A DNA stretch of 10,826 nt from a virus (lineage: Duplodnaviria > Heunggongvirae > Uroviricota > Caudoviricetes). The translations under genes and the position numbers were made by a program. The notes under the pieces were generated by a model. It made no database searches. It was not told the DNA's origin and saw only the letters and a program-made list of their open reading frames with translations. Below are positions 304 to 10,554 of the stretch, piece after piece. Where the stretch lies: the IMG/VR virus record IMGVR_UViG_3300012983_002979; one strand, given 5' to 3'. Numbering within the stretch: position 1 is the stretch's first letter; each line of letters opens with the position of its first letter.

Positions 304-1497
304 GTGGCTCGGACAACACGCCCTCTGAGCAACACCGAAGTTCTACGTGCTAAAGCGCTAGATAAGGATCTAACACTGCATGATGGTGATGGGCTTTTTC
401 TGATAGTGAAAACAAACGGTAAAAAACTCTGGCGCTTTCGCTATCAACGACCAACTACAAAAAAAAGAACAATGATAGGGATAGGTGCTTTCCCAGCTAT
501 CTCACTTGCTGATGCTAGAAGGTTAAGGGCGAATTATCTTGCTTTGTTAGCTAATGGCCTAGATCCACAAGTTCAAGCTGAACTTATCGAAGAACAACAA
601 CAGATAGCCATAGACAGTATTTTTTCGACTGTTGCATTCAATTGGTTCCAGCTAAAAAGCAAAAGCGTTACCCCTGATTACGCTAAGGATATATGGCGCT
701 CTCTGGAAAAGGACATATTCCCAGCTATCGGGGAGCTCCCTGTCCAGCAAATCAAAGCCCGGACTCTAGTCGAAGCCCTTGAGCCAATAAAAGCACGTGG
801 GGCTCTTGAAACTGTACGTCGCCTGATACAGCGGATTAACGAGATTATGATTTATGCCGTAAATACTGGTCTGCTCGATGCAAATCCTGCATCAGGCGTC
901 GGGATGGCCTTTGAAAAACCCAAAAAACAAAATATGCGGACGCTGAGACCTGAAGAACTGCCGGAACTAATGCGTTCTTTAGCTATGTCAAACTTATCCG
1001 TTCCCACTCGCTGTCTTATAGAATGGCAACTTCTGACCCTCGTGCGTCCATCAGAGGCATCTGGTGCTCGGTGGGCTGAGCTCGATCTGGATGCAAAGCT
1101 CTGGGTGATTCCAAGCGAGCGGATGAAGGCTAAGCGAGAACATATTGTTCCTTTGTCTCCTCAAGCCTTAGACATTCTTATGGTGATGAAACCAATAAGT
1201 GGGCATCGGACATATATTTTTCCGAGTCGAAACGATCCCCAAAAAGCAATGAATAGCCAAACAGCAAATGCGGCATTAAAACGTATTGGATATGGACAAA
1301 AATTGGTTGCTCATGGTTTGCGTTCTATTGCAAGTACAGCGATGAATGAGGCAGGTTTTAATTCAGATGTTATTGAAACTGCACTTTCTCATGTTGACAA
1401 AGACGAAGTTCGGCGTGCATATAATCGCGCTTTATATCTCGAGCAACGTAAAGAGCTTTTAAATTGGTGGGGATTATTTGTCATGAACTCTAAATAA
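304..1497 (+). CDS. int: Tyrosine site-specific recombinase, P4-type integrase (397 aa, GTG start)
   Basis: ORF 304..1497 with AAGGAG 8 nt upstream. N-terminus (GDGLFLIVKTNGKKLWRFRY) resembles the arm-binding domain of P4-family integrases; C-terminus has HGLRS...RAYNRALYLEQR consistent with the catalytic His/Arg/Tyr region. Location next to the tmRNA 3' end is typical. Confidence 0.9.
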   Translation: MARTTRPLSNTEVLRAKALDKDLTLHDGDGLFLIVKTNGKKLWRFRYQRPTTKKRTMIGIGAFPAISLADARRLRANYLALLANGLDPQVQAELIEEQQQIAIDSIFSTVAFNWFQLKSKSVTPDYAKDIWRSLEKDIFPAIGELPVQQIKARTLVEALEPIKARGALETVRRLIQRINEIMIYAVNTGLLDANPASGVGMAFEKPKKQNMRTLRPEELPELMRSLAMSNLSVPTRCLIEWQLLTLVRPSEASGARWAELDLDAKLWVIPSERMKAKREHIVPLSPQALDILMVMKPISGHRTYIFPSRNDPQKAMNSQTANAALKRIGYGQKLVAHGLRSIASTAMNEAGFNSDVIETALSHVDKDEVRRAYNRALYLEQRKELLNWWGLFVMNSK

Positions 1498-1522
1498 AAG
1501 CTTTTTAATCATCAAAAATTTT

Positions 1523-1546
1523 AAGGCTTTCATTCATGAAAGCCTT
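1523..1546 (-). terminator. Perfect 10-bp-stem hairpin between convergent int and cargo genes; likely terminator for the cargo operon
   Basis: AAGGCTTTCA-ttca-TGAAAGCCTT. On the minus-strand transcript the hairpin is followed by AAAAUUUUU. It overlaps the last codons and stop of cargo gene 2. Confidence 0.45.
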
Positions 1547-2189
1547 CTGTAACAATTATAGGTTCATCTAGCATATATTGTTTTGCAACATATAAAGGAA
1601 AAAAATCTGAGGTATAAAAATTAAAAATATCCCATTGGATATAACACCAAAAAAGAATAACCAAAAGCATCAATGTTATATTTGCCATGGATATATGAAA
1701 ACTCCACAACAAACAAAACAAAAGAGAAAAAATAATCTCAGAGTTAATTATCTTAACTCGAAGATTAGCCTTTTTATCTGATATCTTTTTATCTATCTCC
1801 TTAATAATAAAAAAATCATGGGCATCATTTCGTTTTAACCCCTCATATTTCTCATAAATCCTTAAAATATAGCCATCAAAATCACCAATAAAAACAAGGT
1901 GATTGAAAACTGAAAAGTTTATTTTCTTATGACCATAATTTAAAACCAGAGAAATGATTAGGGCTTGTATTAATTGCAACACTGAAAGCCCTGACAGTAC
2001 TCCCTGTTGAAAATCAAGCACATCCTTAAGGGAAGTTTGATTCATGATATTATATATATCAACATTACCTTTCTGATAAGTCAACATAAAGAAAATTACC
2101 ATGAATAATATCAAAAAACGATGAAGAGGATACTTACAAGTAAGATCCTCAATATATTTCTCTTGGACTTTTTTTGCTAGTTCATCCAT
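1530..2189 (-). CDS. Hypothetical integral membrane protein, ~219 aa, four predicted TM helices (hotspot cargo gene 2)
   Basis: ORF 1530..2222 minus; preferred start is the ATG at 2189-2187 (MDELAKK...), which overlaps the upstream stop as TAATG and has AGGTG 5 nt upstream. Hydrophobic segments FLILFMVIFFMLTY, VLSGLSVLQLIQALIISLVL, IIFSLLFCLLWSF and ITLMLLVILFWCYIQW, with a charged ~60-aa loop between TM2 and TM3. Very AT-rich. Confidence 0.65.
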   Translation of the reverse strand: MDELAKKVQEKYIEDLTCKYPLHRFLILFMVIFFMLTYQKGNVDIYNIMNQTSLKDVLDFQQGVLSGLSVLQLIQALIISLVLNYGHKKINFSVFNHLVFIGDFDGYILRIYEKYEGLKRNDAHDFFIIKEIDKKISDKKANLRVKIINSEIIFSLLFCLLWSFHISMANITLMLLVILFWCYIQWDIFNFYTSDFFPLYVAKQYMLDEPIIVTEGFHE

Positions 2190-3088
2190 TAATACACCTG
2201 TATAAAATATACATCTCCACAATTTGGATCAAAAGCTCCATATTCTATATATGGAGCACCTAAAAACACCATCTCTCTTTCATTCTGAAAATAAGGAAAA
2301 ACCTCTTGAAAATCTTCTTTTGAGGCAAATCTCAGTGTACTTACCGAATTGTTAAAACTGTTTTTCATTTTAGCAGAAAGATATTGCAAATCCATCTCTG
2401 TAACTTTCACTCGATAAATTACAGGGTCACCCAATTTCTTCCTAGTTATAACCCTATGAAAATCATTGGCTTTTGCTCTATTGAACCCAAAAACCTCTGT
2501 GCGATCTGCTGTCAACGATATTTCTAGCGAGCTATCCCCTGAATGATGAGACCTAATAATTGCCAACATTTGATCTATCTCTCTCACAATTGCTCGGTCA
2601 CCATACCGTCGATTAACTGCTGCATCCGGATTTTCCAAAAGTTGCTGATAATCACGAGGTAAAATTTTCTGGCTAGCAATTTGTGCACGTCTAGTCTCTA
2701 CACTTTTACTAATAGTTTCAGCATTTTCAAGACCAGACTGCTGTGCTTCTTTAACTGCATTATTTAGTGCATTTGAAACCCTTTCGACTACTTTTTTTGT
2801 AACATCTTTCTTAGAGAAGAAGTCGATAATATATCCACCTTCTCTAGGGGGCTGTACCAACAGTTCAACATCTTTATAGTAGTCATGATGCATCTTTGCA
2901 TATTTCCAAAGATTACCATGTCTGATGTCAAGATAAGCCCGATCTAAGGCACTTTGCAAATGGCCTAGGCTTTTAGAAAGAGTTCTCAGGGATACTTGGT
3001 GATCAGGTGCAATATCGCCATCAAAATGCAATTCAACAATCGCCACTTCACTTTGCTCCATGTGGAAAAATAAGTCGTTAATGTTCAT
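2189..3088 (-). CDS. Hypothetical protein, 299 aa, no recognisable motif (hotspot cargo gene 1)
   Basis: Long ORF in AT-rich DNA, same orientation as and translationally coupled to the membrane-protein gene. No Walker A, zinc finger or obvious nuclease motif seen by eye. The SD upstream of the ATG at 3088 is weak. Confidence 0.7.
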   Translation of the reverse strand: MNINDLFFHMEQSEVAIVELHFDGDIAPDHQVSLRTLSKSLGHLQSALDRAYLDIRHGNLWKYAKMHHDYYKDVELLVQPPREGGYIIDFFSKKDVTKKVVERVSNALNNAVKEAQQSGLENAETISKSVETRRAQIASQKILPRDYQQLLENPDAAVNRRYGDRAIVREIDQMLAIIRSHHSGDSSLEISLTADRTEVFGFNRAKANDFHRVITRKKLGDPVIYRVKVTEMDLQYLSAKMKNSFNNSVSTLRFASKEDFQEVFPYFQNEREMVFLGAPYIEYGAFDPNCGDVYFIQVY

Positions 3089-3194
3089 ATATTACGTTCA
3101 TATAAAGCACAGATCTACATCTTGAAAATGAATTTTAAAGCTGAATGAGATTTGTGATAATTCTAAAAGACATTTTTATGATACATCGCGCGCA

Positions 3195-3213
3195 GTGCTT
3201 TCCCCGCCTCGCC
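3195..3213. other. cos site: P2/P4-type 19-nt cohesive end (reverse complement of GGCGAGGCGGGGAAAGCAC)
   Basis: 3195-3213 reads GTGCTTTCCCCGCCTCGCC, whose reverse complement matches the P2/P4 cohesive-end sequence as I recall it. Flanked by GC-rich dyad symmetry (3203-3232). Position between int/cargo and psu agrees with P4 organisation. Confidence 0.55.
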
Positions 3214-3314
3214 CGCCCGCTTTGCGGGGCGGTTTTAATGCAGTTGCACTGACACGCTCAGACCGCGCCGGGAATGGTGCGGTCTGCAGAAAATGAGGCA
3301 GGAAAACGCATGCA

Positions 3315-3377: not shown

Positions 3378-3950
3378 TTACACAGACTGATGTGATGCCA
3401 GTTGCGCACTTTTACGCGAAAAAATCATGTTCTGCGCAGGGGTGAATTTTTCACGGCTGTCATCCACCGAAGCCGCGTCAGGCCTGAATCCGATGGTCGT
3501 TAAAATGTCGCTATCCTGTGCGGAATAATTAATTTTTTCACCCTTCGCAAGCCAGGACAGGAGGGCTTCACGCAGGGCATCTGTGGCACGCTGTATGGCA
3601 CAGTTTCGGGCAATGGCCGTCAGCTCACTGTAGCCCATCAGCTCCGGTGCCAGTGCCGCCGCCAGTGCTGTGCCGTGCTGCTGCATAAAATCATTCAGCC
3701 GGTCGCGGATGCTGATGTGCTGAACGGCTTCATGCGAACGAATATAACGACCGGCGGCCTGATTCACCTGCCATTTTCTGACTTCGATAATATTGCGTAA
3801 TTCGTCCAGGCGACTGACGTTTCTGCCTTCTCCTGACTGAAGCCGCAGATATTCCTGTTCGGCCGCTGCCAGCTCATTTTTGCGTTGCAGCCATGCTGCT
3901 TTGTTATTCTGACAGGTGTCAAAGGCCTGCTGTAAGGCTGTGCTTTCCAT
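3378..3950 (-). CDS. psu: Psu, polarity suppression / capsid decoration protein (190 aa)
   Basis: 190-aa ORF beginning MESTALQQAFDTCQNNKAAW, which I recognise as P4 Psu; length and position (last gene of the psu-delta-sid operon, adjacent to cos) match. Confidence 0.9.
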   Translation of the reverse strand: MESTALQQAFDTCQNNKAAWLQRKNELAAAEQEYLRLQSGEGRNVSRLDELRNIIEVRKWQVNQAAGRYIRSHEAVQHISIRDRLNDFMQQHGTALAAALAPELMGYSELTAIARNCAIQRATDALREALLSWLAKGEKINYSAQDSDILTTIGFRPDAASVDDSREKFTPAQNMIFSRKSAQLASHQSV

Positions 3951-6138: not shown

Positions 6139-6329
6139 TTTTTCCGCTGTCGCAAAATCGGCAGCCGGGCGTAGGAACCCGTGTAACTCGAAGGCGACAT
6201 ATGACGCGCCATGCGTCTTTTTTTGTGTCGCAATCAACGCCACAGAGCGCCAGATTATGGTGTGGCGTGTGGTTTGCCGTGCAGGTATGATCCTGTTCGC
6301 AATCGCATGTTATGCCACTGAGTCAATGG

Positions 6330-6400
6330 TAGCTCAGGCGGGGCAGCCTCCGGGCTGGCCGGTATTCTTCGAGGCCGGTATTCCTACCCCCGTCTGGGCT
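6330..6400 (+). ncRNA. cI: CI-like immunity RNA region (seqB-like core); boundaries approximate
   Basis: The central segment 6367-6387 (CTTCGAGGCCGGTATTCCTAC) is complementary to the bipartite GTAGGAA...CTCGAAG(G) motifs at 6171-6194 and 6414-6453, as in P4 seqA/seqB/seqC. RNA ends cannot be set from sequence. Confidence 0.35.
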
Positions 6401-6463
6401 ATCGCCATCGAGCGTAGGAACTCCGGCGATAGCAGTTATTTGCTACTCGAAGGAGACTGCCTT

Positions 6464-10234: not shown

Positions 10235-10252
10235 ATCCCTGAATTCCCCGAA

Positions 10253-10554
10253 GGTGAACAATCCACTGTTCACCCTTCACCGTATATTCACCCGTTATCA
10301 CACTGAAATTAAAAGAGAAAAACGAAAGGTGAACAGTGTGAACAATCAAATCAAAAAAAACTTTTTTCTCCCTGTGTGATTTTCAGTACGGGGGATTAAT
10401 CACCGGTATGAGTCACACCGGCAGAATGCCGGAGGTGAAGAATCGAATGTTCACCCTTCACCCATTATTCACCACCTATCCAACTGAAATAAAAGGAGAA
10501 AACAGAAAGGTGAACAGTGTGAACAGTTCTTTCGAAAAAAAATTTTTTTCCTGT
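10253..10554. repeat. crr-like cis replication region: two ~120-bp direct repeats (10253-10375 and 10433-10554) separated by ~57 bp, each with TGTTCACC/GGTGAACA iterons
   Basis: The two units align along their length (GGTGAACAATCCACTGTTCACCCTTCACC...GAAAGGTGAACAGTGTGAACA...CCTGT versus GGTGAAGAATCGAATGTTCACCCTTCACC...GAAAGGTGAACAGTGTGAACA...CCTGT). P4 crr is two 120-bp direct repeats ~60 bp apart carrying the alpha-binding octamer. Confidence 0.6.

Follow-up and report, generated by a model that had tools for sequence, protein, structure and literature searches.

A P4-like phage satellite (IMG/VR record IMGVR_UViG_3300012983_002979; 10,826 nucleotides (nt), the whole of which we call the window) carries two overlapping genes on its minus strand, and these genes are one conserved, co-inherited, and tightly coupled unit. 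Gene 1 (positions 2189-3088, WP_024238668) encodes a soluble protein of 299 amino acids as annotated, which has no hydrophobic segment. Gene 2 (1530-2189, WP_024238669) encodes an inner-membrane protein of 219 amino acids, as judged from its open reading frame (ORF), its hydropathy, the annotation by PGAP, alignments, and an AlphaFold2 model. We tentatively propose that the pair is an operon-type anti-phage module in the psu-int hotspot and that it is RexAB-like, with a soluble sensor and a membrane effector that would bring about abortive infection. We would give this reading slightly less than an even chance. The pair has been catalogued since 2022 and is not a new discovery: it is a plausible but unproven defence candidate.

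Two overlapping genes that are inherited together

An earlier note on this DNA had placed gene 2 at 1530-2189, with a start that overlaps the stop of gene 1 by one nucleotide, and both the sequence and PGAP bear this out: the ORF is on the minus strand and encodes 219 amino acids. The junction reads ...CAGGTGTATTAATGGAT on the minus strand (given also as CAGGTGTATTAATGG). The TAA of gene 1 (2191-2189) and the ATG of gene 2 (2189-2187) share one base, which gives TAATG at 2187-2191, and a Shine-Dalgarno-like AGGTG motif (2199-2195) lies 5 nt upstream of the ATG. PGAP annotates the identical coding sequence of 660 nt (WP_024238669) with the same one-base overlap. Furthermore, all 18 of the gene 2 homologues that we aligned are about 219 amino acids long and start with the invariant MDELAK..Q.KYI.D.T..YPL.RF. 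Because the homologues all begin in this way and at this length, the start of gene 2 is the ATG at 2189. The same invariant N-terminus rules out the TTG at 2222, which the note had named as the other potential start. The overlap of 1 nt supports translational coupling. It does not imply that the two proteins are made in a fixed ratio, and the note's proposal of fixed stoichiometry does not follow from it.

The coupling is also seen across genomes. Our set of canonical pairs has 18 members: the pair in the window, those in 16 of the 23 loci that we recovered from genomes, and one from Xanthomonas (locus L029). In all 18, gene 1 is followed by an ORF of 218-229 amino acids with four transmembrane (TM) segments, the spacing between the two being -4 to +5 nt, and a more distant variant from Salmonella has the same arrangement. 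The divergence of gene 1 and the divergence of gene 2 are correlated (r = 0.94 over 17 pairs), with gene 2 changing about 2.2 times faster. Pairs are found across the Gamma- and Betaproteobacteria, and they occur outside satellites in Pseudomonas, Xanthomonas, Variovorax, Photobacterium, and others.

Gene 1 sometimes has another partner. In two desulfobacterial loci (L007, 4266-5536, and L016, 6600-7980; one is a Desulfocapsaceae metagenome-assembled genome and the other an uncultured deltaproteobacterium), the partner is an upstream ORF of 122 amino acids with three TM segments. In Desulfosarcina (L008, 6986-8497) it is a downstream ORF of 132 amino acids with two TM segments, and in Paraburkholderia (L023, 6986-8653) it is an unrelated ORF of 248 amino acids, also with two TM segments. 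This variety of small membrane partners suggests that gene 1 swaps them.

Two copies of gene 1 are damaged or appear to be. The copy in L016 looks disrupted. In Escherichia coli M15 (L025, NZ_CP185789.1, 2383-4155), an IS5 element lies in gene 1 and leaves a remnant of 252 amino acids; gene 2 is intact and is severed from its upstream gene.

A defence hotspot in a P4-like satellite

The window is a P4-like phage satellite that is integrated at ssrA. A Pfam scan found int, Psu, Ogr/Delta, AlpA, DUF5375, and the primase; Rfam identified a tmRNA attachment fragment, the C4 RNA, and isrK; and there is a cos site. The gene pair is flanked on one side by the satellite's tyrosine integrase (304-1497, plus strand; Pfam Phage_integrase, Phage_int_M, and Arm-DNA-bind_3), which is convergent with gene 2, and on the other side by psu (polarity suppression; 3378-3950, minus strand; Pfam Psu, E = 4.3e-88). 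These two genes are the boundaries of the hotspot. At its psu-proximal edge lies GGCGAGGCGGGGAAAGCAC (3195-3213, minus strand), which we take to be the cos core of P2 and P4; the match is exact, and 0 are expected by chance. The same layout, with cargo between the satellite integrase and psu and adjoining cos, is annotated beside ssrA in E. coli E21845. The psu-int locus next to cos has been described as the P4 hotspot, a reservoir of anti-phage systems (PMC9122126). Because our gene pair lies in this locus, next to cos, it sits in the published hotspot.

The pair also looks like cargo. The GC content over 1250-3250 is 0.28-0.39, as compared to 0.50-0.64 in the backbone, and the content of the hotspot varies among otherwise similar satellites; in Table S1 of PMC9122126, the pair is one of many systems that can occupy it. 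So the note's description of gene 2 as a cargo protein stands, although the note recognised neither the P4 hotspot nor the previous publication of the pair.

Since gene 2 encodes a membrane protein beside cos in a satellite, it is worth asking if it serves the life cycle of the satellite instead. It might be a holin-like factor for lysis or membrane remodelling, or it might be a superinfection-exclusion protein that blocks the entry of DNA. Temperate phages often exclude others by means of a small protein in the inner membrane. However, this is a variable locus: among 5,426 complete E. coli genomes, the cargo is present in just 25 (at 99% identity or above), on the chromosome in every case. 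Also, the pair occurs outside satellites. As for a holin, gene 2 matches nothing in Pfam, holin families included; there is no lysin gene nearby in the window and no endolysin gene adjacent; and its length of 219 amino acids and its large domain, which is predicted to be cytoplasmic, set it apart from typical holins. We consider a role in the satellite's life cycle to be very improbable.

In other genomes, the pair is sometimes found near known defence genes. In a Pseudomonadaceae genome, it lies directly after the Septu genes PtuA (E = 2.4e-238) and PtuB (E = 1.1e-94). In two Pseudomonas genomes, a retron reverse transcriptase lies within a few genes of the pair (type VI, E = 2.3e-77, and type IV, E = 1.4e-162). 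In Xanthomonas, AIPR and SIR2 genes come next after the pair. And in a P4-like remnant in Salmonella (L026-L028, 5733-8520), a pair with 54% identity fills the same slot beside psu, with Ogr/Delta and Psu immediately before it. Because many of the other neighbours are housekeeping genes, the association with defence is no more than suggestive; it is not overwhelming.

The Salmonella variant adjoins the hin-fljB-fljA genes for flagellar phase variation. Its two genes overlap by 4 nt, and in the index of the contig collection it occurs in 280 blocks.

A family of four-helix membrane proteins

Hydropathy analysis by the method of Kyte and Doolittle identified four hydrophobic segments in gene 2 (at about residues 22-38, 63-85, 151-167, and 171-190, with KD19 maxima of up to 2.16). 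Each is long enough to span the bilayer, and all four are conserved: across 65 diverse relatives, their mean hydropathy stays at 1.4-1.8. The note's claim of a membrane protein with four TM segments is thus well founded, and from its sequence, gene 2 is predicted to be a four-helix protein of the inner membrane.

Between the two pairs of helices are residues 86-150. The note had described this region as a large charged loop. It is large (65 amino acids) and charged (13 K/R and 9 D/E), but it is net basic, and in the AlphaFold2 model it is not a coil: TM2 and TM3 extend into it as helices, and it has one short helix besides. Across the 65 relatives, this segment averages 12.0 K/R and 6.8 D/E, while loop 1 averages 2.5 K/R. 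Given this excess of basic residues and the positive-inside rule, we infer that the segment is cytoplasmic, along with the N- and C-termini. The model is helical throughout, with a mean predicted local distance difference test score (pLDDT) of 82.7. Conservation is focused on the N-terminal helix, which is predicted to be cytoplasmic, on E151 at the start of TM3, and on Y192 and P198 after TM4; these three residues and Y12 are invariant, and the membrane helices are poorly conserved.

A word-indexed search found 30 clusters of gene 2 relatives, and when we searched 1.84 billion representatives exhaustively with a profile, we found 165 clusters. Nearly all of these are 215-232 amino acids long and match over their full length, without fusions to other domains. 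We found no relative of this family in Pfam, PADLOC, or the PDB. The profile of the family (residues 71-168) has a marginal match (E = 0.0062) to the endoplasmic reticulum calcium-load-activated channel TMCO1 (6w6l, chain 6), which shares a layout of a TM segment, a cytoplasmic helical hairpin, and another TM segment. The structure searches did not support this match, and we view it as a weak lead only.

A soluble protein with an OB fold

The structure model of gene 1 is confident (pLDDT 88.9). It has an N-terminal region that weakly resembles DUF7946, a helical middle, and, at about residues 217-299, a five-stranded closed beta-barrel that superposes on known oligonucleotide/oligosaccharide-binding (OB) folds. 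The structural neighbours of this barrel are mostly proteins that bind single-stranded DNA (RPA, SSB, PriB, Ten1, and MCM-N). The invariant polar residues of gene 1 include K62, Y162, E170, D172, H211, E282, and D292, which fits a putative ligand-binding or catalytic site.

The first 11 residues of gene 1 as annotated are disordered in the model, and residues 1-14 (3047-3088) are not conserved; the conserved core begins at about residue 15. Because of the disorder and the lack of conservation, the true start is probably Met10 (the ATG at 3061). Neither start has a clear Shine-Dalgarno motif.

Gene 1 belongs to a family of at least 95 clusters, typically of 285 amino acids, which are mainly from Gamma-, Beta-, and Deltaproteobacteria, with one from a cyanobacterium. 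Among 36 homologues, 16 match Pfam's DUF7946 (PF25678) with E of 0.01 or less (best, 4.8e-6). The match involves the N-terminal 70 or so residues, around the motif HFDGDI..NH..R.L, and it spans positions 2-69 of the 183 in the profile, or about a third. The copy of gene 1 in the window scores 15.5 bits, which is below the gathering threshold of 27. So the relationship to DUF7946 is weakly supported, and at the level of the family only. DUF7946 itself has no assigned function, and a literature search for the name found no mention of it. When we used a profile of the N-terminal domain of gene 1 to look for relatives of DUF7946 or for fusions, the only matches were fragments from the same family.

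Other sequence comparisons gave little. For gene 1, a profile search of the PDB yielded only coiled-coil-like matches to haemagglutinin HA2 (E of 0.016 or higher), which we rejected as compositional. In the scans of both window proteins, we treated weak matches to STING_TM (E = 0.042), PTPS, LAPAL_fam, and DUF6363 as noise. In PHROGs, only two families matched, both of them of unknown function and composed of essentially the same proteins.

A candidate anti-phage function

How might these proteins protect a cell from phage? In the RexAB-like reading, the pair would be inert in uninfected cells. Gene 1, as a cytoplasmic protein of about 285 amino acids, would sense a cue from the phage, perhaps through its OB fold, and this cue might be a single-stranded nucleic acid or a phage protein. 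Once activated, gene 1 would act on the conserved cytoplasmic parts of gene 2, which would then oligomerise, compromise the membrane, and abort the infection. We assign the role of sensor to gene 1 and that of effector to gene 2 because gene 1 is the constant, conserved component, while its membrane partner evolves quickly and is sometimes swapped. A conserved sensor with swappable effectors is a general pattern in the CBASS, retron, and Thoeris systems.

As mentioned above, the pair has been published before. In their tables, Rousset et al. 2022 list WP_024238668 and WP_024238669, with both sequences, as "hypothetical + hypothetical" among the loci of the P4 hotspot (PMC9122126). It is system 30 in their Table S1B, and the sole comment is "4 TM in protein 2"; the adjacent number, 51, is apparently the number of loci. 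Their clone of the pair, pFR87 or "HP + 4TMs", was made from Escherichia marmotae E1118 and retains the native promoter (PMC9122126). Over the stretch that is printed in their table, the DNA of pFR87 is the same as the minus strand of the window from the 3' end of psu onward; the two versions of protein 2 differ by H98R. A search for both accessions in the main text of papers found nothing; they appear only in supplements. Another supplement is that of DefensePredictor, whose Table S10 predicts that gene 1 is a novel defence gene (log-odds of about 4.9, as compared to a stringent cutoff of 4); gene 1 is absent from the units that were cloned (Table S6). Whereas PMC9122126 includes no analysis of the domains, folds, phylogeny, or context of the pair, we add the evidence that the pair is a conserved unit, the co-divergence of its genes, the defence genes near it in other genomes, the OB fold of gene 1, and the extent of the gene 2 family.

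Several observations weigh against a role in defence. First, pFR87 was tested in MG1655 against eight coliphages, and no protection was reported; it appears only among the "additional tested systems" of Table S2B, as opposed to the validated systems of Table S2A (PMC9122126). Second, neither protein has a validated relative in defence: scans of both window proteins against PADLOC v2, NCBIfam, and Pfam gave nothing above threshold, with 0 families from PADLOC, and comparing the 65 relatives of gene 2 to PADLOC gave only single weak matches. Third, when we searched 50,697 phage records and 72,556 plasmid records with gene 2 (by tblastn), the pair was absent. And fourth, there are the housekeeping neighbours that we have already described. 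The note had suggested that gene 2 is a pore-forming or membrane-disrupting effector, which is unproven: neither sequence and profile searches nor structure searches found a relative of gene 2 that would support a pore, no protection against those eight coliphages was reported, and the four-TM partner in Kiwa is a sensor (PMC11785009).

On the other hand, Rousset et al. state that a small phage panel underestimates activity, and one of their PARIS variants was active only when its expression was induced (PMC9122126). Also, in a 2026 study, six of eight randomly chosen unknown loci from the P4 hotspot were protective against a panel of 28 phages, and none of the six as described there resembles our pair (PMC13586616). 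A bolder version of the RexAB-like reading is that the pair is a mechanistically new immune system, in which an OB-fold protein whose fold is otherwise unmatched recognises an SSB-type protein or an intermediate of phage replication and gates a four-TM protein that has no relatives among known channels or effectors. This version also supposes that the negative result from 2022 was due only to the small panel and to expression from the native promoter. We find it doubtful. Either way, the value of the pair is in retesting it on wider phage panels rather than in its discovery. It is tractable: there are just two genes, they reside in E. coli and have already been cloned, and there are natural variants and natural partner swaps to work with.

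The negative plaque data also invite a different idea, which is that the pair does not act in defence at all. It could be a toxin-antitoxin or addiction cassette, or some other non-defence module, in which gene 2 is a membrane toxin, gene 1 neutralises it, and the cassette stabilises the satellite or island. Such a cassette would consist of two tightly coupled genes on a mobile element, one of them for a small membrane protein, and it need not show a defence phenotype, as in the sole published test. Even the IS5 insertion in gene 1 of E. coli M15 could reflect selection against a costly cassette. But M15 retains an intact gene 2 despite the truncation of gene 1. A cell that relied on gene 1 as an essential antitoxin could hardly afford this, except where gene 2 is then silent. 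Gene 1 is also unlike typical antitoxins, as it has 285 amino acids, a conserved multi-domain fold, and invariant polar residues. And the pair repeatedly turns up in defence hotspots and next to genes of Septu, retrons, AIPR, and SIR2, which favours a role in defence. Overall, we think that an addiction cassette is quite improbable. Because many cassettes of this type act in abortive infection, it overlaps with the RexAB-like reading anyway.

Transcription signals and other features of the satellite

A terminator-like hairpin lies at 1523-1546 on the minus strand, with a stem of 10 bp and a loop of 4 nt, followed by AAAATTTTT. As the note had pointed out, it overlaps the end of gene 2: its span includes the stop codon and the three codons before that. 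The 66-nt region around it has a folding energy of -15 kcal/mol (z = -3.3), which 0 of 200 shuffled sequences matched. Since the stem is followed by AAAATTTTT, the copy in the window is only a moderate intrinsic terminator. The Buttiauxella copy (L002) maintains the hairpin via a compensatory change (AAGG...CCTT to ATGG...CCAT) and has a cleaner run of T. The hairpin is probably the terminator of the operon.

There is a second hairpin on the minus strand at 2257-2235, inside the 3' end of gene 1 (9 bp, then TTTT; -16.9 kcal/mol), and gene 2 starts about 45 nt further on. The hairpin covers codons for the conserved motif GAPYIEYGA. We considered if it might be an attenuator between the genes, but it is absent from all of the homologous loci, even the Buttiauxella copy, which is 85% identical, so it is probably incidental. 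Upstream of the operon, the match to a sigma-70 promoter at 3132-3160 (minus strand, TTATCA-17-TAAAAT) fits just 9 of 12 consensus positions. It lies 44 nt upstream of the annotated start of gene 1, in a region that has no more promoter-like sites than shuffled sequences would lead one to expect.

Next to the cos core, at 3213-3232 on the plus strand, is a GC-only hairpin of 6 bp (CCGCCC...GGGCGG) that is followed by TTTT. It belongs to a conserved cos-proximal sequence that is also present in the cloned fragments of PMC9122126.

At the other edge of the satellite, positions 1-120 are the last 120 nt of the 3' end of the tmRNA gene ssrA (Rfam RF00023, 99.5 bits), which is cut off by the edge of the window. 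This fragment is the attachment site of the satellite, as in the identical locus of E. coli E21845, and the integrase begins 184 nt downstream of it. Beyond Psu, the window encodes an Ogr/Delta zinc-finger protein, an ORF of the size of Sid, AlpA, DUF5375, and a primase-helicase of 777 amino acids. The Hfq-binding small RNA isrK (6146-6223) and the C4 antisense RNA (6322-6409), which is the P4 CI-type immunity RNA, both score above Rfam's gathering threshold; otherwise, this region has only overlapping ORFs that are probably spurious. Finally, downstream of the primase gene, in an AT-rich stretch, is a direct repeat of 120 nt, with copies at 10248-10367 and 10429-10548 that are 81% identical and 181 nt apart. 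It may be a crr- or ori-type replication repeat of the satellite.

Comparison with known defence systems

RexAB, the abortive-infection system of lambda, is a two-gene operon that is borne by prophages or satellites and encodes a soluble protein of about 280 amino acids followed by an inner-membrane protein with four TM segments. Our pair resembles it in each of these respects. In RexAB, a cytoplasmic sensor activates the membrane effector. The likeness is of architecture only: neither protein of our pair, nor their relatives, has a match in Pfam or PADLOC to RexA (PF15969) or RexB. Gene 2 also differs from RexB, which has about 144 amino acids, in that it has 219 amino acids and a predicted cytoplasmic helical domain of 65 amino acids. 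RexAB-like pairs have been found in the P4 hotspot as well, including pFR86 (PMC9122126).

The other system with this architecture is Kiwa, in which the four-TM protein KwaA senses membrane stress and the soluble protein KwaB binds phage DNA (PMC11785009). Like Kiwa, our pair is a two-gene unit that comprises a membrane-embedded four-TM protein and a soluble partner that probably binds nucleic acid. This suggests the main rival to the RexAB-like reading, in which the roles are reversed: gene 2 would sense the perturbation of the membrane when the phage attaches or ejects its DNA, and the OB-fold protein would bind the incoming or replicating DNA and block its replication or transcription without killing the cell. 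What makes the rival credible is the OB fold of gene 1, since most of the structural neighbours of this fold bind single-stranded DNA. Furthermore, gene 1 has many invariant polar residues, gene 2 shows no pore-like fold, and KwaA and KwaB are a precedent for such a division of labour (PMC11785009). However, there is no sign of homology. We found no DUF4868 and, with PADLOC v2, no match to KwaA or KwaB for the window proteins; among the 65 relatives of gene 2, the models of KwaA and KwaB each match one, at the chance levels of E = 0.009 and 0.0011. Gene 1, with its OB fold, has a different fold from KwaB (DUF4868), and the order of the genes in Kiwa is the opposite of that in our pair. Also, the unrelated small membrane partners of gene 1 fit interchangeable effectors better than they fit a dedicated sensor. 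The negative plaque data apply to the reversed roles just as they do to the RexAB-like reading. On balance, we consider the reversal unlikely.

Returning to the RexAB-like reading, two validated systems from the hotspot itself, Hydrolase + 3TM and RT-nitrilase + 1TM, are encoded in the same locus and likewise consist of a soluble protein and a downstream TM protein (PMC9122126). The authors view the TM proteins of these systems as effectors of abortive infection (PMC9122126). Unlike in these systems, gene 1 has no recognisable enzymatic domain, and our pair has not been validated. By its sequence, the pair has the architecture of RexAB and Kiwa without belonging to them or to any other defence family that has been modelled. 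If it is active, it would supply a candidate OB-fold sensor, and it would add a family that is unrelated in sequence to the small group of defence systems, namely RexAB and Kiwa, that combine a soluble protein with a four-TM protein.

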